Assembly (NCBI GenBank): GCA_050261675.1
Contig: JBLNDO010000030.1
Location: 11,424 to 75,423 of the forward strand
Reading direction: 5' to 3'
Length of the DNA stretch: 64,000 nt
DNA from: Bacillota bacterium
GTDB taxonomy: Bacteria > Pseudomonadota > Gammaproteobacteria > Natronospirales > REEB76
The notes under the pieces were generated by a model. The model was not told where the DNA came from. It did not search any database and worked only from the letters and a program-made list of their open reading frames with translations. The position numbers and the translations under genes are program-made. Of this stretch, positions 3,952-46,098 are shown one piece after another (within the stretch, counting starts at the first letter, position 1; the number at the start of each line of letters is the position of its first letter).

Positions 3952-6246
3952 ATGACGATCTCGAAGATGGCGCCCGGCCGGGCGCTCCTGGTTTCCCTGT
4001 TGTCGCTCGCCGGCGCCTTCCACCTGGCCGCCGCGTCCGCCGCCACGGTGGCGAGCATCACGCTCGCCGTGCCCACCAAGACCCTGACCGCCGGCAACAC
4101 CGAGACCCTGAAGGCGACGGCCAAGGACTCCAGCGGCCACGTGATCAGCGGCGTGGCGTTCACTTGGACCTCCAGCAGCACCAAGGTGCTCACGATCTCG
4201 AGCGCGGGCCTCGCCAAGGGCCTGTTCCCGGGAAGCAGCACGGTCAAGGTCACGGGCGGCGGCAAGACCGCCAGCGTCACCCTCAGCGTGGTGGTGGCCA
4301 GCGTCACCCTCACCGCACCCAGCAAGACCCTGAAGGTGGGCAGCCACGAGACCCTGAAGGCGGTGGCCAAGAACTCCGCCGGCCAGGTGATCACCGGGGT
4401 GACGTTCAAGTGGACCTCCAGCCACAGCACCATCGTGAGTGTCGGTTCCACCGGCGTGGCGACGGCCCTGACCTCCGGCAGCGCGACCCTCAAGGCGTCG
4501 GTCGGCCCGAAGTCGGCGAGCGTCGTCATCACCGTGCCTCCCCACGTCGCGGGCATCGCCGCCAAGGGCAGCGCCATCGCCGGGGCCACCGTCACACTGG
4601 TGGACAAGAACGGCGCGACGATCTCGACCGTCACCGGGAGCGACGGCAGCTACAGCCTGGACACCACCGGCCTCACGCCGCCCTTCATGGTGTCCGTGCA
4701 GGTGGATCCCAAGACCGTGCTCTACAGCGTCAGCGACACCGCGAACCCTGGCATGGTCATCAACGTGACGCCCCTGACGGACCTCATCATCCGCTCCTGG
4801 TACAGCGTGCAGGGCCTGGATGTGGCCACGGCCTTCGCGGCCCCGGTCACCGACCCGCCGCCCTCCCCGACCGACGTGCAGATCATCAGCAACGTGGTGG
4901 TGCAGGTCACCGCCCTGTGGCTGCAGCAGAACGGCGTGGACACCACCAGCTTCAGCCCCATCAGCACGGCCTTCACGGCGAACGGCACCGGCGCGGACGC
5001 GGTGCTGGACGACACCACGGTGGACACGGGCACCGGCGCCATCACCATCAGCGCCGGCACCGTCAGCCAAAGCTCGACCGTGACCTACGACACGGGCACC
5101 AGCTCCATGAACGTGGCCACCACCACCACCGACAGCAGCACCAGCACGACCGACAGCAGCGTGCAGGGCACGGTGGTCGCGACCAGCAGCGATGCGCAGA
5201 CGGCGCTCACTGCGATCACCACCACGCTCAACTCCTTCGCCAGCACGGTGAATACGAAAGGTAGCGCTCTCGCGGCCAGCGACGTCAAACCTTTCTTGGA
5301 TACCGGCTTGCTGAACGAAGGTTTGGATCAGGACCTGTTCGCGGACAACATCGCCGATAACTTCAACGGCACACAGACGGGCGGCACGCCCGTGAGCGTC
5401 TCGTTCCAGGTGCTGAATATCCAGACGCTCGATACCGTCAACGGCCTCGCCGACGTGAACTTCATCATGACCGAGACCGCGGGCAACCAGACCCAGACCC
5501 AGACCGACGAGTTCTTCTTCAAGGACCAGGGCAATGGTACCTGGCTCTTCTACGGCGACAATCGGCCCGCCAAGCTCAGCGTCGCCGCCGAGGTGCGCAC
5601 CAACCAGGGCACGAATAACGCCGCGAACGGGCCCGACATCAACCTCGACGTCCGTCCGCTCACGGGCCTCTACTCGGGCATCACCGCGAACGGCGGCCCC
5701 ATCAGCAATCAAGCCTTCACCCAGCAGGGCACCGAGGATGACGTCTATATCCCGGATCCGGCCGTCCCGGCCACCACCGTGACCGTGACGCGGGACGTCT
5801 TCTTCTACAACACCGGGGTGTTGGGAAGCCTGCCCTCTCCCGGCACCAGCCTGACCATCACCCTGACGCCCGTCTCCGGTCCGGCGCAGCCCTACACGGT
5901 GCTGACCAACGCCGTCACCAACGAGGGCATCTCCATCACGAGCCCCACCGGCTCCACCCTGGCCACGGCCACCTTGGGCACGCCGCTGCACGTGGTTTGG
6001 ACCCTGCCGAAGACCTTCGCCGTGGCGGAAGTGAAATTGGAAGGCTTCGCGGAAACCGACCCGGGCCAGAACGACAACATCCAATGCAACGCTCCCAAGC
6101 CGGTGCTCTCCAACACGGCCACCTCGGGCGACATCACGATACCCACCACCTGCGGCGGCAAGTCCGTCCTGGGCGCGATCCTCAACGTGAACGTGATCGG
6201 CGTGAACGGCGAGCGGGAGATCATCGACTACGAATTCCAGAACTGA
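3952..6246 (+). CDS. large secreted protein with two Big_2 Ig-like domains and a carboxypeptidase-regulatory-like domain
   Basis: ATG 3952 with RBS ggtgaggg and signal peptide '...LAGAFHLAAASA'. Two ~80-aa tandem repeats ('ITLAVPTKTLTAGNTETLKATAKDSSGHVISGV.FTWTSS') are followed by 'ATVTLVDKNGATISTVTGSDGSYSL' and a Thr/Ser-rich C-terminal 500 aa. Confidence 0.75.
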   Translation: MTISKMAPGRALLVSLLSLAGAFHLAAASAATVASITLAVPTKTLTAGNTETLKATAKDSSGHVISGVAFTWTSSSTKVLTISSAGLAKGLFPGSSTVKVTGGGKTASVTLSVVVASVTLTAPSKTLKVGSHETLKAVAKNSAGQVITGVTFKWTSSHSTIVSVGSTGVATALTSGSATLKASVGPKSASVVITVPPHVAGIAAKGSAIAGATVTLVDKNGATISTVTGSDGSYSLDTTGLTPPFMVSVQVDPKTVLYSVSDTANPGMVINVTPLTDLIIRSWYSVQGLDVATAFAAPVTDPPPSPTDVQIISNVVVQVTALWLQQNGVDTTSFSPISTAFTANGTGADAVLDDTTVDTGTGAITISAGTVSQSSTVTYDTGTSSMNVATTTTDSSTSTTDSSVQGTVVATSSDAQTALTAITTTLNSFASTVNTKGSALAASDVKPFLDTGLLNEGLDQDLFADNIADNFNGTQTGGTPVSVSFQVLNIQTLDTVNGLADVNFIMTETAGNQTQTQTDEFFFKDQGNGTWLFYGDNRPAKLSVAAEVRTNQGTNNAANGPDINLDVRPLTGLYSGITANGGPISNQAFTQQGTEDDVYIPDPAVPATTVTVTRDVFFYNTGVLGSLPSPGTSLTITLTPVSGPAQPYTVLTNAVTNEGISITSPTGSTLATATLGTPLHVVWTLPKTFAVAEVKLEGFAETDPGQNDNIQCNAPKPVLSNTATSGDITIPTTCGGKSVLGAILNVNVIGVNGEREIIDYEFQN

Positions 6247-6272
6247 CGATCGCTTCGCTCATCGCTCAAAAC

Positions 6273-6300
6273 AAAACCGCCCCGAAAGGGGCGGTTTTTT
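6273..6300. terminator. bidirectional rho-independent terminator between convergent genes
   Basis: aaaa-ccgcccc-gaaa-ggggcgg-tttttt. It lies between the stop at 6246 (+) and the stop at 6299-6301 (-). Confidence 0.8.
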
Positions 6301-6814
6301 ATGAGGATTTACACGCCTGGATGGCCGCAGCGATGCCGCGCAGGAGCGCCTCGGGCGAGGGCGGGCAGCCGGGCACTTCCACGTCCACCGGGATCACGTC
6401 CGCGACGCGGCCGCGCAGGGCGTAGCTCGGGCAGAAGATGCCCTCGCCCCTGCCGCAGGCGCCCACGGCCACCACCAGGCGCGGCTCGGGCGTGGCCTCG
6501 TAGACGCGCTTCAGGGCCGCTTCCATGTGCTTGGACACGGGCCCGGTGACCAGTAGCAGGTCCGCGTGGCGCGGGCTCGCCACGAACTTGATGCCCAATC
6601 CTTCCAGGTTGTAGTAGGGATTGGTGAGGGCGTGGATCTCGAGTTCGCAGCCGTTGCAGGAGCCGGCGTCCACGTGGCGGATGCAGAGCGCGCGGCCGAG
6701 CACGCCGAGGATGTCCGCGCCGAGCGCCTCGCGGCGGCGCCAGGCCTCCTCCGCCCGCGGCGCGGGTTCGGTGACGACGCCGATCCGGCCGATCTGCTTC
6801 AGGGTCTTGAGCAC
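6299..6814 (-). CDS. NuoB/HycG/HyfI-like small subunit (keeps all 4 Cys for one [4Fe-4S] cluster)
   Basis: 'GSCNGCELE', 'SPRHADLLLVTGPV', 'GACG' and 'PGCPP' motifs. GTG start 6814 with GGAGGG 4 nt upstream. Confidence 0.85.
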   Translation of the reverse strand: MLKTLKQIGRIGVVTEPAPRAEEAWRRREALGADILGVLGRALCIRHVDAGSCNGCELEIHALTNPYYNLEGLGIKFVASPRHADLLLVTGPVSKHMEAALKRVYEATPEPRLVVAVGACGRGEGIFCPSYALRGRVADVIPVDVEVPGCPPSPEALLRGIAAAIQACKSS

Positions 6815-6824
6815 GCGCCCTCCG

Positions 6825-8366
6825 CTACAGGTCCTGCCCGCTGTAGGACAGGTTGAAGGATTTGTTGATGAGCGGGAAATCCGGGACGATGTTGCCGAGC
6901 ACCGCGTGCTCGAGCACCGGCCAGTTCTGCCACGACGGGTCGTGGGGATGGCAGCGGCGGACGGTCTCGCCCTCGCCGCTCTCCAGCATCACGAGCACCG
7001 GCCCGCGCCAGCCCTCGATCCAGCCGACCCCCAGGCGCCCCGCCGGAGCGGGCGGCGGTTCGACGCGCGTCCCGCCCGCGGGCAGGTCTTCGAGCAGCCG
7101 CCGGCAGAGGCGCAGGGATTCCAAGAGCTCGTCGAAGCGCACGTCGACGCGGGCGGCCACGTCGCCCGCGAGGGCGCCGCACTGGCGGAGGTCCAGGCGG
7201 TCGTAGGGCGCCGTGGGATGGTCGGCGCGCAGGTCCCAGGACTGGCCGCTGGCCCGGCCGGCGAGGCCGATCAGCCCTAAGTCCCGGGCGAGCGCCGGCG
7301 CCACGCGACCGGCGCCCAGGAAGCGGTCCTGCAGGCCGGCGTGGTCGTCGTAGATGTCCCGCAGCGCGAGCACTTCTTTTTCCAGCGGCGGCAGCGCTTC
7401 CAGCAAGGCGCGGCGCTGGTCCTCCGCGAGATCGGAAGCCACGCCGCCCGGCACCACCGCGTCCATGGAATAGCGGGCGCCGAAGGCGCGGGCGTTCATG
7501 CGCAGCAGGTCTTCCTTCAGGCGCGAGAAATGGGCGAGGCCCACGGTGAAGCCGGCGTCGTTGCCGAGCGCCCCGAGGTCGCCGAGGTGGTTGGCGAGGC
7601 GCTCGCGTTCCAGCAGGAGCGCCCGCAGCCAGAGCGCGCGCGCGGGCGGGGCCGCGCCGGTGATGGCTTCCAGCGCCATGCAGTAGGCCCAGGAGAAGGC
7701 CACGGCGGAATCCCCGGAGACCCGCGACGCGAGGCGGTGGCCTTCCATGAGCGGCAGGGCCTCGAAGCGCTTCTCGATGCCCTTGTGCACGTAGCCGAGC
7801 CGCTCCTCGAGACGCAGCACCTTCTCGCCCACCACGGAGAAGCGGAAATGCCCGGGCTCGATGGTGCCGGCGTGCACCGGTCCCACGGCGATCTCGTGCA
7901 CGCCCTCCCCCGCCACGGCCACGAAGGGATAGTGCTCGTCCTTCACGGGTCCGGTCTCGCGGGGGGCGTCGCGCCGCAGGGGGTAATGGTCCAGGGGCCA
8001 GGCGGCGTGGCGCAGCCAGTCGCGGGTGTCGCCGCCGTAGGCGCAGAGCCCCAGGAGGTCGAAGGCCGCCCGCTGCATGCGTCCGGCGGCCGGGAAGATC
8101 TCCGCCAGGTTCGGATAGCCGGAGGTGGCGCCGCCGTCCAGCGCGTGCTCCAGGATCAGCAGGCCCTCCGCGTCCTGCAGCGCGACGCGCAGCAGGAAAC
8201 CGCCGCTCCGGTCGCGCTCGTCGGTGCCCCACAGGGCGTGCAGCAGGCCGCCGTTCTCGCGCACGGCGGCGCAGGCGGCGCGCAGCTCCGCCGCCTCGAC
8301 CCAGGCACGGCGCGCCGGCGCCGCCCCGGGCAGGGTCTCGTACGTGAGTTTGGGCATCTCGATCAC
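6825..8366 (-). CDS. HycE/HyfG/NuoCD-like large subunit homolog lacking the NiFe-binding cysteines
   Basis: 'GPVHAGTIEPGHFRF', 'LEERLGYVHKGIEK' and an N-terminal NuoC-like part. The RxCGxC position reads RVSGDS (codons 7707-7718). The C-terminal DPCxxC position reads NLSYSG (6837-6851). Confidence 0.85.
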   Translation of the reverse strand: MIEMPKLTYETLPGAAPARRAWVEAAELRAACAAVRENGGLLHALWGTDERDRSGGFLLRVALQDAEGLLILEHALDGGATSGYPNLAEIFPAAGRMQRAAFDLLGLCAYGGDTRDWLRHAAWPLDHYPLRRDAPRETGPVKDEHYPFVAVAGEGVHEIAVGPVHAGTIEPGHFRFSVVGEKVLRLEERLGYVHKGIEKRFEALPLMEGHRLASRVSGDSAVAFSWAYCMALEAITGAAPPARALWLRALLLERERLANHLGDLGALGNDAGFTVGLAHFSRLKEDLLRMNARAFGARYSMDAVVPGGVASDLAEDQRRALLEALPPLEKEVLALRDIYDDHAGLQDRFLGAGRVAPALARDLGLIGLAGRASGQSWDLRADHPTAPYDRLDLRQCGALAGDVAARVDVRFDELLESLRLCRRLLEDLPAGGTRVEPPPAPAGRLGVGWIEGWRGPVLVMLESGEGETVRRCHPHDPSWQNWPVLEHAVLGNIVPDFPLINKSFNLSYSGQDL

Positions 8367-8369
8367 GGC

Positions 8370-9821
8370 CTAGCCGATGAGCTTCGCCGCCTCGCGGAAC
8401 CATTCCGCGAGGTAGGGCGGCATCCACAGGCCCAGCATCAGGACGAGGGCCAGGTGCGTGAACACGGGGATGAGCGCCGGCGAGTGCGGCAGGCGCGGCA
8501 GGTGGGTTTCGCCGAACACCATGGCCTGCACGCGGGTGAAGATGGCGCCGAAGGCGACGCCGAGCGCCGTGAGCAGGATGGGCGTGGCCCAGGGGTGGTC
8601 GCGCATGGCGGTGATCAGGATCAGGAACTCGCTGGCGAACACGCCGAAGGGCGGCATGCCGAGGATAGCGAGGGTGCCGACCATGAGCCCCCAGCCCACG
8701 GTGGGGCTGACGGTGATGAGGCCGCGGATCTGGTCCATGACCTGGGTCTTGGCCTTCTGGGCGGCGTGGCCCACGGCGAAGAAGATGGCGGACTTGGTGA
8801 GGGAATGCACGGTCATGTGCAGGAGCGCGGCGAAATTCGCCACCGGCCCGCCCATGCCGAAGGCGAAGGTGGCGATGCCCATGTGCTCGATGGAGGAATA
8901 GGCGAACAGGCGCTTCACGTCCTTCTGCCGCCACAGCAGGAACGAGGCCAGCACCACCGAGAGCAGGCCGAAGCCCATCATGAGGCCTCCGGCCACGTGG
9001 GTCTGCACCGCGCCCTCCACCAGCACCTTGCAGCGCACCACGGCGTAGAGCGCGACGTTGAGCAGCAACCCGGAGAGCACCGCGGACACGGGCGTCGGGC
9101 CCTCGGCGTGGGCGTCCGGCAGCCAGTTGTGCAGGGGCGCCAAGCCCACCTTGGTGCCGTAACCCACCAGCAGGAACACGAAGGCGAGCGAGAGCACCGT
9201 GGGCTCGAGCTGGCCTTTTACCTGGTTCAGGTGGGTCCAGAGGAGCGCGGTGGTGCCGGAACTGCCGAGCAGCTTCTCGGCGGCGAAGTACAGCAGGATG
9301 GTGCCGAACAGGGCCTGGGCGATGCCGACACCGCAGAGCACGAAATACTTCCACGCCGCCTCGATGGAGGCCGGCGTGCGGTAGAGCGACACCAGGAGCA
9401 CCGTGGCGAGCGTCGCCGCCTCCAGCGCCACCCACAGGAGTCCCATGTTGTTGGTGGTGAGCGCCAAGAGCATGGTGAACATGAAGAGCTGGAACATGCT
9501 GTGGTAGAGCCGGAGGCGCCGCGGGTTCACCCGGCCGTGGTGCGCCTCGATGCGCATGTAGGGCCGCGAGAACAGCGTGGTGGTGAAGCCCACCAGCGCC
9601 GTCAAGGCCACCAGGAACACGTTGAACGGGTCCATGAAGAACTGCTCGTTCAGGGCGAGCATCGGCCCGCCGGCGATCACCTTCCAGGTGAGCCAGACGG
9701 CGGCGGCGAAGGTGCCGGCGCCCACGGCCACGTTGGCCTCCGGCGCCCAGCGGCGCTCGCCGATGATCGCCAGGAGAAGGCTCCCGGAGAGCGGCAGGGC
9801 GAGCAGCACGAGTATCTCCAC
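8370..9821 (-). CDS. HyfF/NuoN(M)-like antiporter-type membrane subunit
   Basis: 483 aa, polytopic. 'WVALEAATLATVLLV', 'AWKYFVLCGVG', 'GLAPLHNWLPDAHAEGPTPVSA' and 'KRLFAYSSIEHMG' are Mrp/NuoLMN-family motifs. GTG start with AAGGAGGA upstream. Confidence 0.85.
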   Translation of the reverse strand: MEILVLLALPLSGSLLLAIIGERRWAPEANVAVGAGTFAAAVWLTWKVIAGGPMLALNEQFFMDPFNVFLVALTALVGFTTTLFSRPYMRIEAHHGRVNPRRLRLYHSMFQLFMFTMLLALTTNNMGLLWVALEAATLATVLLVSLYRTPASIEAAWKYFVLCGVGIAQALFGTILLYFAAEKLLGSSGTTALLWTHLNQVKGQLEPTVLSLAFVFLLVGYGTKVGLAPLHNWLPDAHAEGPTPVSAVLSGLLLNVALYAVVRCKVLVEGAVQTHVAGGLMMGFGLLSVVLASFLLWRQKDVKRLFAYSSIEHMGIATFAFGMGGPVANFAALLHMTVHSLTKSAIFFAVGHAAQKAKTQVMDQIRGLITVSPTVGWGLMVGTLAILGMPPFGVFASEFLILITAMRDHPWATPILLTALGVAFGAIFTRVQAMVFGETHLPRLPHSPALIPVFTHLALVLMLGLWMPPYLAEWFREAAKLIG

Positions 9822-9822
9822 C

Positions 9823-10482
9823 TCAGTCCTCCTTGAGCTTTTCCATGTGGTGCAGGTCGAGGCTGTCGAACTGCTCCCGGATCTGGAAGAAGAAGATGCC
9901 GAGGATCAGCACGCCCACCAGCACGTCCAGCGCCACGCCGAGCTCCACCACCATGGGCATGCCGTAGGTGGTGCTGGTGGCGGCGAAGAACAGGCCGTTC
10001 TCCATGGCGAGGAAGCCGAGCACCTGGGTGATGGCCTTGCGGCGGGTGATCATCATAAGGAAGGAGAGCAGCACCACCGCGAGCGCGATGCCGAGGGTGC
10101 TGCGGGTCACCGTGTGGCCGAGCTCGGAGATGGGCTGGGCGAGCGAGAAGCAGAAGATCACCAGCACGAGCCCGGCGAGCATGATGGTGGGGGCGTTGAT
10201 GATGGTCTCGCTCTCCCAGCGCGCCCCGAGGCGGGCGATGAGGCGGTGCATGATGAACGGCAGGGCGATGACCTTGAGCAGCAGCGTCAGCGCCGCGGAG
10301 AAGAACAGGTGGTACTGGCCGGTGGACACCATCACCACGGTGATGGAGACGAATAGGGCCGCGCCCTGCAGGGCGTACAGGGTCACGAGGGTGAGCACCC
10401 TCCGCTGCGCCAGCATGGCGAAGGACAGCAGCAGCAGCAGCGCCGCGCAAAGGTCGATGAGCTGGGAGGCGAAGCCGGCCAC
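9823..10482 (-). CDS. HyfE/NuoK-like membrane subunit
   Basis: GTG 10482 lies just after the upstream stop (10485). The 219-aa hydrophobic product has 'GFLAMENGLFFAA' typical of HyfE/HycP-like proteins. The remainder of ORF 9823..11361 is a 5' artefact. Confidence 0.75.
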   Translation of the reverse strand: MAGFASQLIDLCAALLLLLSFAMLAQRRVLTLVTLYALQGAALFVSITVVMVSTGQYHLFFSAALTLLLKVIALPFIMHRLIARLGARWESETIINAPTIMLAGLVLVIFCFSLAQPISELGHTVTRSTLGIALAVVLLSFLMMITRRKAITQVLGFLAMENGLFFAATSTTYGMPMVVELGVALDVLVGVLILGIFFFQIREQFDSLDLHHMEKLKED

Positions 10483-10484
10483 GG

Positions 10485-11435
10485 TCAGCTCCCCAGGAGC
10501 AGGTGCACCAGGAGCCCCAGCACCGCCAGCAGGAAGGCGGTGGCGAGGAACTCCGGGGCCCGGAAGATGCGCATCTTGGCGTTCAGGGTCTCGACGAGCG
10601 CGAGACCCGCGCCCGCCGCGGCGAGTTTCACGGTGGTCACGGGGACGGCGAGCAGGAGCCCCAGGTTGTCGCCGGTGTCGGCGGCGAGGCCCCAGGGCAG
10701 GAACAGGGCCAGGCCGATGCAGGTGTAGTTGAAGAGCTTGAGCGCCACGGACCACTCGATGAGCGCGAGATGCCGCGCCGAATACTCGAGGACGGTGGCC
10801 TCGTGGATCATGGTGAGCTCGAGGTGCGTCGCCGGATTGTCCACCGGGATGCGGGCGTTCTCGGCCAAAAGCACCATGAGGAAGGCGATGCCGGCGAAGG
10901 CCAGGCTGGGATAGAGCGCGAGTTCCCGGTGTGCCAGCACGTCCACGGTGGTGGGCAGCGAGGTGCTGTGGGAAATCAGCGAGGCGGTGAAGAACACCAT
11001 GAGCAGCGCGGGCTCGGCGAGGAAGCCCACCAGCATCTCGCGGCGCGCGCCCAGGGAGCCGAAGGCGGTGCCGATGTCCATGGCGGCGAGCGCGAGGGCG
11101 ACCCGCGCCGTGGCGAACAGGCCCACGAGGGCGATGGCGTCCGCCGCCACGGCGAACGGCAGGCCGGTCCAGAGCGTGGGGATGATGGCGGCGGCGAGGC
11201 CCATGGCCGCGAACTGCACGTAGGGGACGAGGCGGAACAGCGGCGAGGCGCCCTCGGCGATGACCGCGTCCTTGTGGAACAGCTTGCGCAGCAGGCGGTA
11301 GGGCTGCAGGAGCCCGGGACCGCTCTTGTTCTGCAGCCAGGCGCGGCACTGGTTCACCCAACCCATGAGCAGGGGCGCCGCCGCCACCGCCAGGAGGATC
11401 TCGACGCCTTGGGCAACGAGGCGCGCGGCGCTCAC
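10485..11435 (-). CDS. HyfC/HycD/NuoH-like membrane subunit
   Basis: GTG 11435 overlaps the upstream stop (GTGA). The 316-aa product has 'RAWLQNKSGPGLLQPYRLLRKLF' and 'ENARIPVDNPATHLELTMIHE' (NuoH/HycD signatures). Confidence 0.85.
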   Translation of the reverse strand: MSAARLVAQGVEILLAVAAAPLLMGWVNQCRAWLQNKSGPGLLQPYRLLRKLFHKDAVIAEGASPLFRLVPYVQFAAMGLAAAIIPTLWTGLPFAVAADAIALVGLFATARVALALAAMDIGTAFGSLGARREMLVGFLAEPALLMVFFTASLISHSTSLPTTVDVLAHRELALYPSLAFAGIAFLMVLLAENARIPVDNPATHLELTMIHEATVLEYSARHLALIEWSVALKLFNYTCIGLALFLPWGLAADTGDNLGLLLAVPVTTVKLAAAGAGLALVETLNAKMRIFRAPEFLATAFLLAVLGLLVHLLLGS

Positions 11436-13435
11436 AGCACGAACACCAGGAGCGCCACCAGGGTGGCGAAGCTGAACAGGAGGTACACGCCGATGCGCCC
11501 CTGCTGCACCAGGCCCGCCACCCGGGAGCCCGCCACGACCGCCCCGCCCACCGGCAGGTACAGCCAGTGCCAGAGGCGGTCTTCCACGCGCACGTGGTAG
11601 CGCGGGTTGGCGTCGAAGGCCGTGGGCAGCTCGCGCTGCATGCGATAGAAGGGCTCGAAGATCTGGCGGATGGGCTGGCCGAAGCCCTCGGCGGTGTCCT
11701 GCATGCGCGGCGTGAGCCAGGGGAAGCCGCAGGCCCAGGGCGGCGCCTTGCGCACGCGTCCGTGGTAGAAGCCGCGCACCAGCAGGACCACCAGCACCAC
11801 CAGCGCCACGGTGCCGAGCAGGAACACGGCGGGACTGTAGGACGCCCGCTCGGCCGACATGGGCGCGAGCAGCCACCACTGCTGCAGCCCGCCTCCCAGG
11901 CCCGCGCCCAGGAGTTCCTGGCTCACGCCGTCCAGGAGCGACAGCACGTGCACCGGAAAGAGCCCGAGGAGCACGCAGCCCGCCGCGAGCCAAAGCAGCG
12001 CCACCCGCTCCCGCCGGCCGCAGTCATGGGCCTTGGCGAGCTTGGGCTCGCGGGGTTGGCCGAGGAAGATGATGCCGTAGAACTTCACCATGACGTAGGC
12101 GGCGAGCGCCGCCACCAGGGCCAGCGCCGCGGCGCCGATGGGCAGCAGCATGTTGATGAACTGGTGCGGCAGTTCCGGCGTGAACAGGAAGGATTGCAGC
12201 AGCAGCCACTCGGACACGAAGCCGTTCAAGGGCGGCAGCCCGGCGATGGCGAGGGTGCCGACGAGGGCGAGCCAGGCGACCCAGGGCATGCGGTGGATGA
12301 GTCCGCCGAGCCTTCCCAGGCTGCGCTCGCGGGTGGAGTGCAGCACAGAGCCGGTGGCGAGGAACAGCAGGCTCTTGAAGAACGCGTGGTTCAAGGCGTG
12401 GTAGAGCGTGGCCGCGAGAGCCAGGGCCGCGAACCGGGGCATGCCGAAGGCGTGGAACAGGATGGTGAGGCCCAGCCCCAGAAACAGGATGCCGATGTTC
12501 TCGATGGAGGAATAGGCGAGCAGGCGCTTCATGTCGGTCTGCACCGCCGCGAAGATCACGCCGTAGAACGCGGTGAAGAGGCCTAAGCCGAGCGCCACCA
12601 GGCCCCACCACCAGAGCTGCGCATGCAGAAGGTCGAACGTGACGCGCAGCACGCCGTAAATGGCGGTCTTCAGCATCACGCCGCTCATGAGCGCGGACAC
12701 GGGGGACGGCGCCGCCGGGTGCGCCTCCGGCAGCCACACGTGCAGCGGCACGAGGCCCGCCTTGGCGCCGAAGCCGAACAGCGCCAGGAAGAACGCGACG
12801 CTCGCCCAGATCGGCGAGAGTGTGGCGGCACGCATGGCCTCGAAGGTGAACTGCCAGCTTCCGCCCTGCAGCACGCCGAAGCACAGGAGGATGCCGATGG
12901 CGCCGACGTGGGCGATGACGAGGTAGATGAACCCGGCGCGGCGGATCTCCGGCAGCCGGTGCTGGCTCGTGACCAGGAAATAGGACGAGAGCGCCATGGT
13001 CTCCCAGGCGACCATGAAGAGGTAGGCGTCGTCCGCCATCAGCACCACGGCCATGCTGGCGAGGAACACGTGGTACTGCAGGCCGAGGAGCCCGGGGGCC
13101 GCGCCCTCGCCGCTGCGGAAGTAGCCCGAGGCGAACACCGAGATGCCGCCGGAGACGAAGCCGAGCAGCATGAGGAAGAAGCAGGACAGGCCGTCCACGC
13201 GCACGTGGAACGGCAATTCCGAGAGCCCGAGCGGCAGCACCAGGGCCTCGGGGGGCTGCGAGAGCTGCAGAAACGCGGCGATGCCGAGCGCAAAACCGGC
13301 GACGCCGCCCAGCGGGAACAGGATGCGCCCCACCCAGGCGATGCTGCGCGCGCCCAGGAGGCCGAGGACGGCGATCGCGACCCACGCCACGGGGATCGAG
13401 AGGATCCCGATGAGAGTCGGATTCGCGGACAACAT
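11432..13435 (-). CDS. HyfB/NuoL-like antiporter-type membrane subunit
   Basis: 667 aa. 'FMVAWETMALSSYFLV', 'GLVPLHVWLPEAHPAAPSPVSALMSG' and 'KRLLAYSSIENIG'. ATG 13435 with GAGGTGG upstream. Confidence 0.85.
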   Translation of the reverse strand: MLSANPTLIGILSIPVAWVAIAVLGLLGARSIAWVGRILFPLGGVAGFALGIAAFLQLSQPPEALVLPLGLSELPFHVRVDGLSCFFLMLLGFVSGGISVFASGYFRSGEGAAPGLLGLQYHVFLASMAVVLMADDAYLFMVAWETMALSSYFLVTSQHRLPEIRRAGFIYLVIAHVGAIGILLCFGVLQGGSWQFTFEAMRAATLSPIWASVAFFLALFGFGAKAGLVPLHVWLPEAHPAAPSPVSALMSGVMLKTAIYGVLRVTFDLLHAQLWWWGLVALGLGLFTAFYGVIFAAVQTDMKRLLAYSSIENIGILFLGLGLTILFHAFGMPRFAALALAATLYHALNHAFFKSLLFLATGSVLHSTRERSLGRLGGLIHRMPWVAWLALVGTLAIAGLPPLNGFVSEWLLLQSFLFTPELPHQFINMLLPIGAAALALVAALAAYVMVKFYGIIFLGQPREPKLAKAHDCGRRERVALLWLAAGCVLLGLFPVHVLSLLDGVSQELLGAGLGGGLQQWWLLAPMSAERASYSPAVFLLGTVALVVLVVLLVRGFYHGRVRKAPPWACGFPWLTPRMQDTAEGFGQPIRQIFEPFYRMQRELPTAFDANPRYHVRVEDRLWHWLYLPVGGAVVAGSRVAGLVQQGRIGVYLLFSFATLVALLVFVL

Positions 13436-13491
13436 CAGACAGCGCCACCTCGGCGCGCGGAGAACGCGCGCGGCTTGACAGGCCCGTGAAG

Positions 13492-13512
13492 TATTATCAT
13501 CCTATGATAATA
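13492..13512. promoter_or_regulatory. inverted repeat (9-bp arms, 3-bp spacer) in the divergent hyf-like / RHH intergenic region
   Basis: tattatcat-cct-atgataata is the only AT-rich patch in the 97-bp intergenic region. A TTGACA hexamer lies at 13475-13480. Confidence 0.5.
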
Positions 13513-13532
13513 GTATGTAAATCAGGTCGCCC

Positions 13533-13730
13533 ATGCCCCGGGAAAGCCGCACCGCCCGCCTGACCATCCTCGTCGATCCGCGCAAGAAGGCGGTGTTCGA
13601 GGCCCTGTGCGCGGACGTGGACCAGACGCCGAGCCAGGTGGTCAGGAAGTTGATCCGGGATTACATCGAGTACCGGACGGGGAAGGCTTGGGATCCGGAC
13701 GCGGTTTCAACGCGGAAAGCGAAGCGTTGA
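13533..13730 (+). CDS. orphan ribbon-helix-helix (CopG/Arc-MetJ-type) DNA-binding protein
   Basis: 65 aa. 'ARLTILVDPRKKAVFEALCADVDQTPSQVVRKLIRDYI' follows the strand-helix-helix pattern. No toxin gene follows; a terminator comes directly after. Confidence 0.7.
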   Translation: MPRESRTARLTILVDPRKKAVFEALCADVDQTPSQVVRKLIRDYIEYRTGKAWDPDAVSTRKAKR

Positions 13731-13736
13731 ACAAAT

Positions 13737-13764
13737 AAAAAGCCGCCTGCTCAGGCGGCTTTTT
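13737..13764. terminator. bidirectional rho-independent terminator
   Basis: aaaa-agccgcc-tgctca-ggcggct-tttt between convergent genes (stop at 13730 on +, stop at 13785 on -). Confidence 0.75.
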
Positions 13765-13784
13765 GCTTTCGGCGAAGAATTATA

Positions 13785-13889
13785 TCAACCGCGTGCCGCC
13801 CTTTTGGCAGCCTTCTCGGCGCGCTTCTCTTTCAGGGTCTTCTGCGGCTTCTTCCGGTCTTCCTTCTTGCGGTCCATACCCTTGCTCAT
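13785..13889 (-). CDS. small Lys/Arg-rich protein (34 aa), not in the ORF track
   Basis: Hand translation gives MSKGMDRKKEDRKKPQKTLKEKRAEKAAKRAARG*, with GAGGAG 6 nt upstream of ATG 13889. It is followed by the terminator at 13737-13764. Confidence 0.45.
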   Translation of the reverse strand: MSKGMDRKKEDRKKPQKTLKEKRAEKAAKRAARG

Positions 13890-13939
13890 GGCGGTCTCCT
13901 CTGGATGGCACTGGATGGGGGAATAATCTTACCAGCCCC

Positions 13940-17908: not shown

Positions 17909-18560
17909 CTACTGCCCGACCATGACGAAGGCGCCCCAGTAGTACGGCAGGTCCTGGCTGTAACGCGCCTTCACCACCTCCCGCTCCTTGAGTTCCGCCT
18001 GCCTAAGCGCTTCGTGCTTCTCCATGCCGCCCAGCCAGTTGGCGTAGAAGAACTGCATCAGCTCCCGGGTCTCCTGGTCCGGCACGGACCACATGCTCAT
18101 GATCACCGCCTGGGCGCCCGCTTCCTGCAGGGCGCGGTTGAGCCCGAACACGCCCTCGCCGTTCTGGGAGCTGCCCAAGCCGGTGTCGCAGGCGGAGAGC
18201 ACCACGAGTTCGGTGCCTTCGAGGTCGAGCTGCTCCGCCTCGTAGGCGGTGAGCACGCCGTCATCCGCCCCCTCCGGCGACGGGTTGCCGGCGAGCGTGT
18301 TGTCCGCCCCGGCGAAATAGAGCCCGGAGCGCAGCATGGGATCTTCCACGAGATTCTTCTGGTCCGGCAGGAAGAAGCCGTGGGTCGCGATGTGCAGGAG
18401 GCGCGGATGGTGCACGGACTTGATGGCTTCTTCCAGGGCGAGGTCGCTTTGGTAGAGCCGCGCCTGCCACTGCTTGCGGCTGAGGAGAGCGTCGATGCCC
18501 GCCACCTCCTCCGCCGTGCCGGGCAACGGACAGAGGATGCCGGTGTCGGGCAGGGGGCAA
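17909..18560. repeat. high-identity paralogous segment (CHAT-domain 3' end), copy A
   Basis: By eye, about 9 in 10 nt match 21304-21960 over the first ~260 nt. Identity is lower but clear further in. The end point is approximate. Confidence 0.7.
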
Positions 18561-21277
18561 TGGGCCGCTTCGGCGCCGCGCGCGACCGGGATGCTGACTT
18601 GGGTGCGCGCCGCGAGCCGGGTGTCGTTCGTTCCGCCGCCGAGCTTCCCCACCGCGGCGAGGTAATCCGCCGCGGGGAGGTCGAACGAGGGGCCTCCCAT
18701 GAGGACGGCATCCTCGGACGTGGCGCCGGTGACGTGCCGCAGCACGTCCTTGGTGCTGGGGACGATGCGCAGGTCGTAGCGCTCCATGAGGAGCTTGCCG
18801 GCGGGGTCCGGCACGATGCCGAGCGAAGCCTGGTTGAATACGCCGTCCGGCGAGAGGTACACGCGTGTGGCGCCCTTGAGCGCGGGCTCCAACGGCGCCC
18901 AGTAGGCCTCGTAGAACGTGGTCTGGCCCGGAAGCGGGGCGGGGCCGGCCTTGCGCAGGCGCGCGGCGTAGTCCGCCACGGGATCGGACTCGAGGCCGGC
19001 GGCCTTGCCGATGACGATGAACTGCGGCTGGTCGCGGGTCTCGGGCGTCACCACCAGGGCCACGTAGTAGTTCTCGTGGGTGTCGAGCCAGCCCTCCATG
19101 TAGTGGAAGCGCACCACTTCCACCGCGGCCTCGCCGGGTTTGAGCGCATCGCGCACCTGTTGCCAGGTGACGCTCTGCAGCCGCTGGCCCTCGGCCACGG
19201 CGGCGGAGCGCTTGGCGAGCTGCCGCTCTAGGTCGTCGGTGTCCGCCTGCTGCTGTTGCACCTTGGCGAGCCACTGGTCGCGGTCCTGGCCGGGGTTGTT
19301 GAGCAGCGTGGCGAGCTTGGTCTTGCTGGCGCTGAGCTTGTCCAGGAGCGCGAGGGAATCGGGGTCGCCGCTGGAGGCGATCTTGGCCCGGAGCGCGGTG
19401 ATGGTGTTGCCCACGAAACCCTTCTGCCACAGGAGCACGTTGTACATCTTGCCGGCGAGCGCGGGGTCCTGCTCGTGGTATTTCAGGCAGAAACTGTAAT
19501 ACTCGGGGAACCGGTCGGCGATGGAATTGAGGAACTGCAAGCGGTCGCGCTCGTTCATGTAGACGAACTGGCTCTCGAGGTCGTGGTGCAGTTTCTCCAT
19601 GGACGCATCCAGCACCGGAGCCGCCGCCTTGCGGTCACCCATCTGGAACAACAGCATCGAGTACTTGAACTGGACGGTGATGGCCATGGCGCTCTGCTCG
19701 CCGTTGACCTTCATGACCACCGGCAGGGCGCGTTCGAAGAGCGGCCGGGCCTCGGCAAGTCGGTTGTGGAAGGCGTAGAACTCCCCCACATTCACCGATT
19801 GCTGGGCCGTATCGGTCTGGTCCGGACCCAGGGTCTTCATGTCCATGGCCATGGCATCCAGATAGAGTTTCTCCGCTTCCGCCGTGCGGTGTTCGTGGTC
19901 GTAGATGTCCGCCAGGATGTTCATCTGGTGGGCGACCTGGGGATGCACGGGCCCGAGCGTGCGCTGATCCATGGCGAGCGCCTTCTCCGCCAGGTCCTGC
20001 GCCTCCTTCCATTGGGACAGGTTGTTGTAGAGCACCGCCAGGTTGCTGAGCGCGGTGGCGGTATTCGGATGGTCCGGCGGATAGACCTTCTCGAAGATGG
20101 CGATGGTCTGCTGCATGAAGGGAATGGCGTCCTTGACCCGCCCCATCTCCCGGTACAGCACGGCCATGTTGTTGAGGTCGTAGCCGACCTGGATGTCGTC
20201 CTCGCCGCGCACCTTGCGGTCTATCTCCAGGGCGCGGCGGTAAAGCGATTCCGCCCGGTTGTAATCGCCGAACACCTCGTACATGTAGGCGATGCTGCCC
20301 TCCACCTGGCCGACGTTGGCGCTCATCTCGCCCTGGGTCTTGACGTAGACGTCGAGGGATTGCTGGTAATACGGCAGCGCCTTGTTGTAGAGACCCTGGT
20401 CGTCGTAGCTGCGCGCCACGTCGTTGAGCATGTTGGCCACGTCCGGGGTCTCCGGCCCCTGAGCCTCGCGCATGATCTGCAGCGCCCGCAGGAACAAGGG
20501 CTCCGCCTCCGCGGGATGCCCCTCGTTGAGGTCCACATTGCCGAGGTAGTCGATCGCGTAGGCGAGGGCCGGCGTCTGCGGCCTGCCGGGCTTATCCAGG
20601 ATGGCAAGCGCGCGGTTGAGCACCTTGCGCGCACCGGCGTTGTCGCCGTTCACCAGGAGCAAGAGACCCTGGCCGGTGAGGGTTTCCGCCAGGTCCTCCT
20701 GGTCCTTGCCCGGCGCCGTCTCCTGGATCGCCAGCGCACGCTGGTAATCCTGGCTCGCCGCGTCCATCTTGTTGAGGTTGTACTCCACCATGGCGAGGTC
20801 GCCGAGGGTGGCGGCCACCTCCGGGTCCGCCGGGCCCAGGAGCTTCTCCTGGGCAGCGAGCACGGCGGTCAGGTCCTTCTCCGCATCTTCGAACCGTCCC
20901 TGGCTCGACTCGGCCCGGGCGATGAGCCGCTGACCCATGGCCGCTTCGGCGCTCCCGGCACCGTGGCGCTTCTGTTCGAGATTGAGCGCCAGGCGGAAAT
21001 AGCTCTCCGCCTCGGGGTAGTTGCCCACGTCGAGCTCGGCCGCCGCCAGGTCGTTCAGGGCTTCGGTCATCTCCGCCGAATCCGCCGGAAGGGTCTTCTG
21101 GGCCGCGGCATATTCGTCTTTCGCCGCCGCGAGAGCGGGCACGAACTGGGCCTTATCCTCCAGGGCCTGGCGCTTGGCTTGCAGCGTCTTCCAGCCGGCC
21201 GGCGCGGGGGGCGCCGAGGCGCAGGCGGCGAGCGCGGCAAGAGCGAGCAGGACGGAAACCGGACGTGGGAGTTTCAT
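17909..21277 (-). CDS. lipoprotein TPR-repeat CHAT-domain (caspase-like) peptidase, paralog 2
   Basis: ATG 21277 with GGAGGGG RBS and signal plus lipobox 'LALAALAAC|A'. About 550 aa of TPR repeats precede a C-terminal CHAT domain with 'HIATHGFF' and 'VLSACDTGLG' (Cys codon 18188-18190). Confidence 0.85.
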   Translation of the reverse strand: MKLPRPVSVLLALAALAACASAPPAPAGWKTLQAKRQALEDKAQFVPALAAAKDEYAAAQKTLPADSAEMTEALNDLAAAELDVGNYPEAESYFRLALNLEQKRHGAGSAEAAMGQRLIARAESSQGRFEDAEKDLTAVLAAQEKLLGPADPEVAATLGDLAMVEYNLNKMDAASQDYQRALAIQETAPGKDQEDLAETLTGQGLLLLVNGDNAGARKVLNRALAILDKPGRPQTPALAYAIDYLGNVDLNEGHPAEAEPLFLRALQIMREAQGPETPDVANMLNDVARSYDDQGLYNKALPYYQQSLDVYVKTQGEMSANVGQVEGSIAYMYEVFGDYNRAESLYRRALEIDRKVRGEDDIQVGYDLNNMAVLYREMGRVKDAIPFMQQTIAIFEKVYPPDHPNTATALSNLAVLYNNLSQWKEAQDLAEKALAMDQRTLGPVHPQVAHQMNILADIYDHEHRTAEAEKLYLDAMAMDMKTLGPDQTDTAQQSVNVGEFYAFHNRLAEARPLFERALPVVMKVNGEQSAMAITVQFKYSMLLFQMGDRKAAAPVLDASMEKLHHDLESQFVYMNERDRLQFLNSIADRFPEYYSFCLKYHEQDPALAGKMYNVLLWQKGFVGNTITALRAKIASSGDPDSLALLDKLSASKTKLATLLNNPGQDRDQWLAKVQQQQADTDDLERQLAKRSAAVAEGQRLQSVTWQQVRDALKPGEAAVEVVRFHYMEGWLDTHENYYVALVVTPETRDQPQFIVIGKAAGLESDPVADYAARLRKAGPAPLPGQTTFYEAYWAPLEPALKGATRVYLSPDGVFNQASLGIVPDPAGKLLMERYDLRIVPSTKDVLRHVTGATSEDAVLMGGPSFDLPAADYLAAVGKLGGGTNDTRLAARTQVSIPVARGAEAAHCPLPDTGILCPLPGTAEEVAGIDALLSRKQWQARLYQSDLALEEAIKSVHHPRLLHIATHGFFLPDQKNLVEDPMLRSGLYFAGADNTLAGNPSPEGADDGVLTAYEAEQLDLEGTELVVLSACDTGLGSSQNGEGVFGLNRALQEAGAQAVIMSMWSVPDQETRELMQFFYANWLGGMEKHEALRQAELKEREVVKARYSQDLPYYWGAFVMVGQ

Positions 21278-21303
21278 GGACCCCTCCACAAAGCATCAAT
21301 TCA

Positions 21304-21960
21304 TCAACGCCCCACCATGACGAAGGCGCCCCAGTAATACGGCAGGTCCTGGCCGTAACGCGCCTTCACCACTTCCCGCTCCTTGAGTTCCGCCTGCCTC
21401 AAGGCCTCGTGCTTCTCCATGCCGCCCAGCCAGTTCGCGTAGAAGAGCTGCATCAGTTCCCGGGTCTCCTGGTCCGGCACGGACCACATGCTCATGACCA
21501 CCGCCTGGGCACCCGCTTCCTGCAGGGCGCGGTTGAGCCCGAACACGCCCTCGCCGTTCCCGGCACTGGTGCCCAAGCCCGTGTCGCAGGCGGAGAGCAC
21601 CACGAGTTCGGTGCCCTCGAGATCGAGCTGCGCCGCCTCGTAGGCGGTGAGCACGCCGCTGTCAGCTCCCGCCGGCGGCGGGTTGCCAGCGAGCGCGTTG
21701 TCGGCTCCAGCGAAGTATAGGCCGGAGCGCAGCATGGGGTCTTGCCTCACTCTCCGTTGGTCCGGCAGAAAGAACCCGTGGGTGGCGATGTGCAGGAGCC
21801 GCGGATGGTGCGCGGCTTGGATGGCTTCCTCCAGGCCCTGTTCACCTTGATATAAAGACGCCTGCCATTGTTTACGCGTCAGCAAGCCGTCGATGTCGCT
21901 CACTTCCTGCGCCGCACCCGGCAAGGGACAGAGGATACCGGTGTCGGGCAGGGGACATTT
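21304..21960. repeat. high-identity paralogous segment (CHAT-domain 3' end), copy B
   Basis: Direct repeat of 17909-18560, same orientation, 3.4 kb apart. The end point is approximate. Confidence 0.7.
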
Positions 21961-24675: not shown

Positions 24676-24692
24676 AACAAGCTACGCTGCGC

Positions 24693-25478
24693 TCAGGGCG
24701 AGGGGCTGGCGCGCAGGTGCTCCGCCTGGGCGAAGTCGGCGTCCGCGTCGCCTTGCGTCACGGGAAGCTGCGCGAACAGCGTGCCGCGGCCCTCGTAAAG
24801 CTCGGCACGCGCGGGGTACTTCTGCATCAGGCGGGTGTAGGCGCTCACGGCATCGTACCAGAGGCGCGCGTCGGTGTAGATGCGCGCCTTGGCGAGGTCG
24901 GCAGCGTAGGCGTCCGTATCCTTTACGGCGGCGAGCTTGTCCGCCACGGCCTTGCGCGGATCGCCCGCCACCACTTCGAAGCCCACCGGCGCAGACTGCT
25001 GGTTGCCGGACATGCTGGGTGGCGTCTCCACCGTCCAGAAATAGGTCTTGCCGGGCTCGAGCTTGGGCGCAGTCTCAGGATAATGGAAACGGTAACCCTT
25101 CACCTCGGTGTGAAACAGGGATTTCTGGTTGTCGTCCCACAGGGTGAAGACGTAGCTCCCGCCGCCGCCAGCGTCGCTCCAATAGAATTCCGGCAGGTTG
25201 TCGTAGAGCTTGCCCAGGTGCGGCGCGAGGGCGACCGGCGCCGCGCCCTCGCCGCGGGACGCACCGGCGGCCATGGCCTGCTTCTTGAGGGCATCCTTGT
25301 CCACAAGGTCGAAACCCGAGAGCACCGTCACCACGCGCGGCCGCTTGGCGGCGGCGGGTTTGACGGAGGTGCCGGCCGAGGCCGCCTTCGCCGCCGTGGA
25401 GGCGGCGGGCGCCGCGCGCAAGCCGGAGGCGGCACAAAGACCCAGAATCGCGGACAGGATCACGAGACGACGCAACAT
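24693..25478 (-). CDS. exported DUF928-like protein with TPR-like C-terminal tail
   Basis: ATG 25478 with RBS gaaggggaggg and signal 'MLRRLVILSAILGLCAASGLRA|A'. The core 'LPEFYWSD...YVFTLWDD...LEPGKTYFWTVE' matches my recollection of the DUF928 pattern. The tail is 'ARIYTDARLWYDAVSAYTRLMQKYP'. Confidence 0.55.
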   Translation of the reverse strand: MLRRLVILSAILGLCAASGLRAAPAASTAAKAASAGTSVKPAAAKRPRVVTVLSGFDLVDKDALKKQAMAAGASRGEGAAPVALAPHLGKLYDNLPEFYWSDAGGGGSYVFTLWDDNQKSLFHTEVKGYRFHYPETAPKLEPGKTYFWTVETPPSMSGNQQSAPVGFEVVAGDPRKAVADKLAAVKDTDAYAADLAKARIYTDARLWYDAVSAYTRLMQKYPARAELYEGRGTLFAQLPVTQGDADADFAQAEHLRASPSP

Positions 25479-25501
25479 CGACTTACCCTCCCCTTCAGAA
25501 A

Positions 25502-27382: not shown

Positions 27383-27431
27383 GCCGGTACCCCATGCCGG
27401 GACGCGGCCCCATTATGCCGGGGACCGGACG

Positions 27432-27460
27432 CCTATATATAGGTATCTATATATGTATGC
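27432..27460. promoter_or_regulatory. AT-rich palindromic patch upstream of the CHASE2 operon (putative promoter/operator)
   Basis: cctatatatagg (perfect 12-bp palindrome, 27432-27443) followed by tatctatatatgtatg. This is the only AT-rich sequence in the 79-bp gap between 27382 and 27462. Confidence 0.45.
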
Positions 27461-27461
27461 G

Positions 27462-37085: not shown

Positions 37086-37304
37086 TATCCCTGGCCTGAG
37101 GGGGAAGCGCTCCAGCCCGCGGGAAAGTATAGACCTCCCGTCCGGCCCCCACGGCCGGGAGCCCGGATTCCATCGACCCAAATACGTGCGCCCGGCACTG
37201 GACATAAGCACCCCGAATCTGCACACTGCGCCCGGACTTCTTGGCAATCAGGGTCGGATCCGGAACCCCGCTTGAAGACGGGACGGGAGAGACCGGGAGA
37301 CGTG

Positions 37305-46051: not shown

Positions 46052-46081
46052 TTGACTTCCCGCCCGTGCCGCCACTACCCT
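46052..46081 (+). promoter_or_regulatory. possible sigma70-type promoter for egtB
   Basis: TTGACT (46052-46057), an 18-nt spacer, then TACCCT (46076-46081). The GAGGAG RBS is at 46087-46092. The -10 is weak. Confidence 0.3.
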
Positions 46082-46098
46082 GCCTTGAGGAGCTGCGC

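Follow-up and report, generated by a model that had tools for sequence, protein, structure and literature searches.

A six-gene operon predicted to encode an energy-converting hydrogenase-related complex that has lost the [NiFe] site

Introduction

The locus considered here, a six-gene operon on the minus strand at positions 6299-13435 of a 64,000-nucleotide stretch of contig JBLNDO010000030.1 (assembly GCA_050261675.1; the whole stretch is referred to below as the window), raises the question of what is encoded by a gene cluster that follows the gene order of the Escherichia coli hyf operon but has neither a formate dehydrogenase nor maturation genes beside it. A preliminary description of the window interpreted the encoded proteins as an energy-converting hydrogenase-related (Ehr) complex. 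The analysis reported below leads to the same identification: as far as can be judged from sequence, the operon encodes an Ehr-type complex, a six-subunit member of the complex I and group 4 hydrogenase superfamily in which the [NiFe] site has been lost. The Ehr class is already known and widespread, and this copy is an ordinary one with no new architecture. What is added here is a signature of the residues that replace the lost [NiFe] site throughout the family, together with two recurrent accessory genes, one for an RHH_9 protein and one for an aminopropyltransferase-like protein.

Ehr complexes are defined as relatives of the group 4 hydrogenases that lack the nickel and iron ligands and are associated with Mrp-like subunits, and their function is given as unknown (PMC6349859, PMC10284858, PMC10432482). 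They have been reported in comammox Nitrospira and in ammonia-oxidising archaea (PMC10284858, PMC10432482). In Geobacter sulfurreducens, the GSU0739-0745 cluster, whose closest resemblance is said to be to Ech hydrogenase operons, encodes a NuoL-like EhrA-1, a HyfE-like EhrC, EhrL and EhrS, and the abundance of Geobacter Ehr proteins is increased with formate (PMC7894505). In Mycobacterium tuberculosis, the Rv0081-Rv0087 locus has been described as an EHR complex that does not function as a hydrogenase (PMC6728331), and its origin is probably horizontal (PMC3087520). Few members of the complex I superfamily that lack an assigned reaction are as widespread as the Ehr complexes, which are found in pathogens (M. 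tuberculosis), in nitrifiers and in metal reducers; solving one of them would supply a missing piece of the evolutionary route that leads from hydrogenases to complex I.

Results and Discussion

Loss of the [NiFe] site from the large subunit

The fifth gene of the operon (6825-8366, minus strand) encodes the large subunit, a 513-residue NuoC-NuoD fusion of the HycE/HyfG type with matches to PF00329 and PF00346. Alignment with HycE (7z0s_E, 6e-62, approximately 34% identity) revealed that RVCGIC is replaced by RVSGDS and DPCYSC by NLSYSG, with the loss of all four cysteines that bind the [NiFe] centre, and the protein is matched by the NuoD-type family PF00346 but not by PF00374. In 30 close homologues, all four metal-binding cysteines of the L1 (RxCGxCxxxH) and L2 (DPCxxCxxR) motifs are likewise replaced. 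The large subunit ends at ...SGQDL, two residues beyond the last HycE residue aligned, and this end point is conserved in orthologues; the position at which the alignment stops is one that we take to be Arg537, the last residue of mature HycE. Since the large subunit ends at the mature HycE C-terminus, it is predicted to have no cleavable C-terminal maturation peptide. The replacement of all four [NiFe] cysteines, in conjunction with the absence of a C-terminal extension, indicates that the predicted complex cannot bind nickel-iron and is not a hydrogenase.

The residues that have taken the place of the metal ligands are themselves conserved. Residue conservation was computed over 50 to 80 orthologues, depending on the subunit, and in the large subunit (80 orthologues) H165, E170, R215, D219, R454, D476 and the tail DFPLINKSFNLSYSGxDL are all retained at 97% or above. 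The hydrogenase-type beta1-beta2 loop (GPVHAGxIEPGHFRF) and the arginine of the ExxRG motif (R454) are retained also. Across 73 cluster representatives with identities of 33-61%, the motifs R-x-S-G-D-[STEN] and N-L-S-Y-[SA]-G-x-D-L are conserved and constitute the replacement signature. A Cys-His-x-His-Asp motif at residues 472-476 was considered as a general Ehr metal site and rejected, being specific to the subclade that contains the query; distant Ehr sequences keep only Asp476.

Phylogenetic placement

A phylogeny had been proposed in the preliminary description as a means of checking the assignment, and was constructed here for the large subunit. Among the best 150 matches, 97 representatives are full length, and 17 of these carry all four cysteines and are 33-42% identical to the query, whereas the representatives without the four cysteines share the two signature motifs given above. 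In neighbour-joining trees, HycE, MbhL and Nqo4 split from all other sequences with 98-100% bootstrap support, and placement of the query inside group 4a therefore fails. The point-estimate tree gathers the cysteine-less sequences into one clade, bar one odd sequence, as sister to a clade of hydrogenases with the motif ELCY[AS]CxDR. With the motif columns masked, the query fell within a clade composed solely of cysteine-less sequences, with at least 19 representatives (median 41), in 100 of 100 neighbour-joining bootstraps. The query is thus nested among cysteine-less relatives, apart from HycE, MbhL and Nqo4. The Ehr interpretation put forward in the preliminary description is upheld by this nesting, by the HycE alignment and missing PF00374 match, and by the definition of Ehr in the literature: the large subunit is cysteine-less, it is encoded together with NuoB-, NuoH- and antiporter-like subunits, and it groups with other cysteine-less sequences.

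Distribution and conservation

Database searches with the large subunit gave more than 8000 close matches and, among cluster representatives at 50% identity, 6750; when each species was represented by a single genome, at least 584 species matched. Among the matches listed, most are from Beta- and Gammaproteobacteria (Nevskiales, Steroidobacter, Gallionella, Casimicrobiaceae, Accumulibacter and Rhodoferax), with Acidobacteriaceae and one Myxococcaceae metagenome-assembled genome as further carriers. Orthologues share 55-80% identity, with at least 584 species and two phyla represented. Those of 55-61% identity reside on the chromids or megaplasmids of Cupriavidus necator, C. metallidurans CH34, Burkholderia, Paraburkholderia and Variovorax, and more distant ones are present in Rhizobium and Azospirillum. 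In cultured relatives, the Prokaryotic Genome Annotation Pipeline labels the genes variously as hyfB, NuoH, 'formate hydrogenlyase', hydrogenase 4 subunit F, NuoC and NuoB family. The orthologues of 58-61% identity in the cultured C. necator, C. metallidurans CH34 and Burkholderia provide experimental handles on the family, and the copy described here makes Ehr function no more testable than do orthologues in cultured bacteria.

When 80 related loci were fetched, the order B-C-E-F-large-small was kept wherever the contig was long enough. Since the replacement motifs, the cluster ligands and the ion-channel residues (described below) are conserved at 95-97% or above and the six-gene order is kept, the complex is predicted to be functional and not decayed. 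GC content of the operon (taken over positions 6001-12000) is 0.69-0.71, as opposed to 0.62-0.68 around it, and the genomic context of the operon varies between taxa. Both features would fit horizontal spread, a history also reported for the M. tuberculosis locus.

Operon layout and subunit composition

The operon comprises six tightly packed, intact open reading frames (ORFs) with high third-position GC. The first gene (11432-13435, minus strand) encodes a 667-residue HyfB/HycC-like antiporter-like subunit of the NuoL class, with a conserved C-terminal extension, and is followed on the same strand by genes for a 316-residue HyfC/HycD-like subunit of the NuoH type (10485-11435), a 219-residue HyfE-like membrane subunit (9823-10482), a 483-residue HyfF-like antiporter-like subunit of the NuoM/N class (8370-9821), the large subunit, and a 171-residue small subunit of the NuoB/HycG/MbhJ type (6299-6814). 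Direct reading of the sequence shows that the GTG start of the HyfC-like gene overlaps the HyfB-like stop codon (GTGA, 11432-11435), with remaining intergenic gaps, in operon order, of 2, 1, 3 and 10 nt. The six genes in the order HyfB-, C-, E-, F-, G- and I-like, and the tight junctions (the GTGA overlap and gaps of 1-10 nt), are accordingly as the preliminary description had them, on the minus strand.

The small subunit matches PF01058 at 6.4e-29 and aligns with MbhJ (6cfw_J, 2.5e-41) and HycG (7z0s_G, 2.4e-36) with the four cluster cysteines in register. These cysteines (C53, C56, C120 and C150) are kept at 97% or above in 73 orthologues and are the only conserved cysteine set, indicating that the small subunit is predicted to retain the ligands for one N2-type [4Fe-4S] cluster. 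Both the single FeS cluster and the NuoB/NuoCD-like peripheral pair (PF01058; PF00329 plus PF00346) of the earlier description are borne out.

The membrane subunits are assigned with varying clarity. The HyfB-like protein matches PF00361 at 6.5e-53 and the NCBIfam model NF005086 ('hydrogenase 4 subunit B') at 895 bits against a cutoff of 667, with HycC (7z0s_C, 4e-65) as its best PDB match; E145, K225, K256, H346, H350, K354 and E409 are kept at 97% or above in 54 orthologues. The HyfF-like protein matches NF005045 ('hydrogenase 4 subunit F') at 852 bits against a cutoff of 543, with MbsH (6u8y_H, 4e-33) as its best match and with E134, K224, H335, H339, K343 and E398 conserved. Both antiporter-like subunits retain the glutamate of transmembrane helix (TM) 5, the lysine of TM7 and the glutamate of TM12. 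The HyfC-like protein matches PF00146 (4.9e-29) and HycD (7z0s_D, 1.4e-37), and its acidic loop, AENARIPxDNPATHLELTMIHEAxxLEYS, is kept, including E192, D199, E206, E212 and E217 at 97% or above. Two antiporter-like subunits and a NuoH-like subunit had been proposed previously, and the Pfam and NCBIfam assignments agree. The HyfE-like protein is less clear-cut: it scores 94 bits (1.1e-26) against NF008556 ('hydrogenase 4 membrane subunit'), which is under the cutoff of that model, and has seven predicted helices with E161 and E180 conserved at 97% or above, while a PDB sequence search with it gave no match. Its earlier description as NuoK-like is weakly supported, with PF00420 (NuoK) giving weak matches in 21 of 34 homologues, at a best E-value of 0.004. 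Structure prediction did not yield a usable fold for this subunit, the AlphaFold2 model having a predicted local distance difference test (pLDDT) score of 62 and a Foldseek search against the PDB returning nothing below E = 0.5.

Missing modules and comparison with known complexes

In group 4a hydrogenases, HycF/HyfH and HycB/HyfA link the small subunit to formate dehydrogenase, and HycI removes the large-subunit extension. The preliminary description had noted that HyfA, HyfH/HycF, HyfD, formate dehydrogenase, hyp and hycI were all missing, and these absences hold for the 64-kb window, which in the case of hyp is the scope of the statement rather than the whole genome. A regular-expression search found the ferredoxin-type motif CxxCxxCxxxC[PA] in none of the six frames of the 64 kb; Pfam searches of approximately 55 candidate ORFs in the window found no domains of hyp, HycI, formate dehydrogenase, FocA or ferredoxin-type subunits; and the operon has no third antiporter-like gene that would correspond to HyfD. 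Domains of NuoE, NuoF, NuoG and NuoI, representing the NADH-oxidising module and its connector, were not found in the window either, and no operon gene has a Pfam match to MrpE, MrpF or MrpG. In the flanks of related loci the ferredoxin motif was present in 3 of 1155 ORFs, none of the three being recurrent.

Set beside the E. coli Hyf and Hyc complexes (7Z0S), the predicted complex has its best solved homologues for four subunits in HycC, HycD, HycE and HycG, shares the hyf gene order B-C-E-F-G-I, and retains from HycE the beta1-beta2 loop (GPxHxxxxEPGHFR) and the ExxRG arginine. It differs in being without the Ni/Fe cysteines, the maturation peptide, HyfA, HyfH/HycF and HyfD, and in that the window yielded neither a formate dehydrogenase nor hyp genes. 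The Mbh (6CFW) and Mbs/Mbx (6U8Y) complexes of Pyrococcus furiosus provide the best match for the small subunit (MbhJ) and for the HyfF-like subunit (MbsH), although MbhL lies outside the query clade. Mbh and Mbs are each built from 13-14 subunits, among them a NuoI-like ferredoxin subunit and those of a complete Mrp module, and Mbs has an altered [NiFe] site that supports non-hydrogen chemistry. Respiratory complex I shares homologues of NuoB, NuoC, NuoD, NuoH and NuoL/M/N, weakly of NuoK, and the N2-type cluster, whereas the window complex is without NuoE, F, G, I, A and J and has the quinone ligands replaced.

Among the Ehr loci already described, Rv0082-Rv0087 of M. tuberculosis consists of six genes for the same kinds of subunit, with the small subunit first in the gene order and with Rv0081 encoding a regulator of the ArsR type. 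The G. sulfurreducens complex likewise has NuoL-like, HyfE-like, cysteine-less large and NuoB-like small subunits, matched here by subunit kind only, but its host is anaerobic and the complex rises with formate, whereas the hosts related to the window are aerobic-type Gammaproteobacteria. The likeness to Rv0082-Rv0087, drawn by description, lies in a cysteine-less hydrogenase-like locus with a regulator gene, Rv0081, upstream (PMC6728331), although the regulator in the window is of the RHH_9 family and not ArsR.

Candidate regulation of the operon

The sole promoter-like match within positions 6100-13900 is a sigma-70-like site, TTTACA-17-GATAAT (13493-13521, minus strand; 10 of 12 positions), upstream of the first gene. 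This site overlaps a perfect 9-3-9 palindrome, TATTATCAT-AGG-ATGATAATA (13492-13512, unstranded), which covers the -10 hexamer and is a candidate operator. Divergent from the operon is a gene for a 65-residue ribbon-helix-helix (RHH) protein (13533-13730, plus strand; PF19839 at 1.3e-21), for which the candidate target sequence at the operon promoter is TATTATCATAGGATGATAATA. Of the 54 loci whose upstream sequence is long enough, 16 have an RHH_9 homologue upstream of the operon, within 300 bp in 11 cases, and ATGATAA/TTATCAT half-sites lie between the RHH gene and hyfB in related loci L005, L059, L021 and L004. The RHH_9 protein probably represses the operon by binding to the palindrome over the -10 element. 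A terminator scan placed a bidirectional terminator (13737-13764) after the RHH_9 gene. At the other end of the operon, directly 3' of the small-subunit stop codon, is an intrinsic-terminator-like hairpin with a T-run, AAAAAACCGCCCCTTTCGGGGCGGTTTTGTTTTG (6262-6298, minus strand); the terminator scanner gave no call at this position, probably due to interruption of the T-run.

Proposed function and alternative explanations

The explanation that we favour, with moderate confidence in its three parts taken jointly, is that the operon encodes an Ehr complex that couples redox chemistry to ion translocation and is repressed by the RHH_9 protein. The complex would still act as a coupled redox and ion-translocation machine, in which the lone [4Fe-4S] cluster of the NuoB-like subunit swaps electrons with a separately encoded soluble carrier that docks at the usual HycF/NuoI site. 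A change in chemistry or charge in the remodelled pocket (Asp219, Asp476, Glu170, His165, Arg454 and the buried C-terminal tail) would be relayed, by way of the NuoH-like loop and the glutamates of the HyfE-like protein, to the pair of antiporter-like subunits, and these would then move protons or cations. Quinone appears to be the most likely acceptor, and the machine could feasibly run either forward, as a pump, or in reverse, with the gradient driving reduction.

Several observations weigh against this account. The quinone-headgroup ligands of Nqo4 (Tyr87 and His38 in Thermus thermophilus numbering) are replaced in the large subunit by Gly218 and Ile169, respectively. In the HyfF-like subunit, Asn255 occupies the position of the TM8 lysine of MbhH, MbsH and ND4, and this asparagine is at least 95% conserved in 72 orthologues. 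Pocket geometry could not be taken from the AlphaFold2 model of the large subunit, in which pLDDT falls below 50 at residues 142-196 and 489-513, and strict monophyly of the cysteine-less sequences against the nearest cysteine-containing clade is not supported, being recovered in 24 of 100 neighbour-joining bootstraps and in none of 100 with the motif columns masked. No functional or structural studies of Ehr were found in the literature searched, which reports only changes in abundance (PMC7894505), and no result obtained here points to a donor, acceptor, cofactor or transported ion.

These points leave room, albeit limited, for other explanations, among which a redox-independent cation/proton antiporter or channel of the Mrp type, with the NuoB/NuoCD cap serving as a structural element or as a gating redox or metal sensor, is judged to be rather unlikely. 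It would account for the fact that genes for electron-input or -output partners are neither present in the window nor recurrent in relatives, and for the matches of the HyfB- and HyfF-like subunits to MrpA and MrpD (1e-21 to 1e-40); the regulators and neighbours in relatives (RHH, ArsR, Hsp20 and universal stress protein) suggest a stress role, and an acidic pocket formed by D219, D476 and E170 would suit ion binding. However, the cluster cysteines, the hydrogenase-type Glu170 and Arg454 and the NuoH loop are strictly kept, as expected of a redox-coupled enzyme. Mrp antiporters are built from the seven-subunit MrpA-G set and, to our knowledge, have no homologues of NuoB, NuoD or NuoH, whereas the window operon contains NuoB-, NuoCD- and NuoH-like genes. 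A further reading, in which the complex runs in reverse and the membrane potential drives electrons from quinol or another mid-potential source to a low-potential carrier such as ferredoxin or flavodoxin, shares its anatomy with the favoured explanation and would fit aerobic or lithotrophic hosts in need of low-potential reductant (Gallionella, Acidiferrobacterales and Casimicrobiaceae; Proteobacteria and Acidobacteria), as well as the occurrence of Ehr in comammox Nitrospira and ammonia-oxidising archaea (PMC10284858, PMC10432482). It is nevertheless considered improbable: none of the present results speaks to direction, the operon has neither a ferredoxin nor a flavodoxin gene linked to it, and many hosts are heterotrophs (Burkholderia, Rhizobium and Cupriavidus).

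The remaining two alternatives fare worse. That the operon encodes the core of a genuine group 4a [NiFe]-hydrogenase or formate hydrogenlyase, with ferredoxin subunits, formate dehydrogenase and hyp/hycI located elsewhere in the genome, might be suggested by the NCBIfam equivalog models that name two subunits 'hydrogenase 4 subunit B/F', by the database label 'formate hydrogenlyase' for the family and by the E. coli formate hydrogenlyase subunits being the best solved homologues. The four metal-binding cysteines are gone here and in every close orthologue, which refutes this reading at the sequence level, and with no cleavable extension on the large subunit and HycE placed outside the clade with 98-100% support, it is regarded as very improbable indeed. 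Loss of the catalytic cysteines would also be expected of a decaying, functionless remnant of a hydrogenase operon, but the six ORFs are intact and separated by a 4-nt overlap or gaps of 1-10 nt, and 55-80% identity is maintained across at least 584 species and two phyla with the replacement residues nearly invariant; conservation refutes this possibility, to which scarcely any weight can be given.

A more speculative reading, which we think unlikely, is that the substitute pocket is a new active or ion-loading site near a lone cluster to which a soluble carrier delivers electrons directly, and that Ehr complexes form a distinct catalytic branch of the complex I superfamily with accessory genes of their own. 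The site may consist of Ser217-Gly-Asp219-Ser220, Asp476, Glu170, His165 and Arg454, with the addition in the query subclade of Cys472-His-x-His475, and may lie approximately one electron-transfer step from the [4Fe-4S] cluster. The accessory genes may include the RHH_9 regulator and a PRK04457-like aminopropyl- or methyltransferase that modifies a subunit or supplies a substrate.

Recurrent neighbours in related loci

A PRK04457-like protein of approximately 250 residues with an aminopropyltransferase/spermidine-synthase fold flanks the operon in 10 loci from Proteobacteria and Acidobacteriota (L081:1600-2436; L082:2702-3436 and 11639-12397; L016, L037, L040, L043, L045, L046, L070 and L075). 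It matches PF01564, with the PRK04457-like match below cutoff, and is annotated as 'fused MFS/spermidine synthase'; no such protein is present in the 64-kb window. ArsR genes occur upstream of the operon in five related loci, and Hsp20 genes also recur in five. The metG gene is directly upstream of the operon in 16 related loci, but metG and apbC were rejected as functional neighbours and are read as housekeeping synteny of Betaproteobacteria; mrp and metG are adjacent in E. coli too.

Other features of the window

The genes that flank the operon in the window are unrelated to it and encode a Big_2 surface protein, a papain-like peptidase, an HD-domain protein, a major facilitator superfamily transporter and two TPR-CHAT proteins. 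A small protein with twin transmembrane helices (835-1206; HIG_1_N/NF033233) is encoded 5 kb from the operon. Its homologues were sought by phmmer over all ORFs of 83 loci, and besides the window only Burkholderia pyrrocinia has one, just after the operon (L081:11470-11682), which was dismissed as coincidence.

Window GC is approximately 66%, and all close relatives are Gammaproteobacteria (Nevskiales, for example Fontimonas and Sinimarinibacterium); the 'Bacillota bacterium' label of the assembly, or the binning of the contig, looks wrong. A PIN-domain protein (1701-2102; PF13470), which is a toxin-type domain, is preceded by a small ORF that may encode an antitoxin. Positions 17909-28499 of the minus strand encode two tandem TPR plus CHAT proteins of approximately 1125 residues, a DUF928 protein, a CHASE2-adenylate/guanylate cyclase and a beta-propeller protein. 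At 35811-39320, the longest ORFs for a GGDEF protein (minus strand) and a GGDEF-EAL protein (plus strand) overlap by approximately 1 kb, and the plus-strand gene probably starts a good way downstream of 36168. Finally, adjoining genes of the EgtB type (FGE-sulfatase plus DinB_2) and EgtD type (Methyltransf_33) at 46066-48337 have the look of an ergothioneine-biosynthesis pair.

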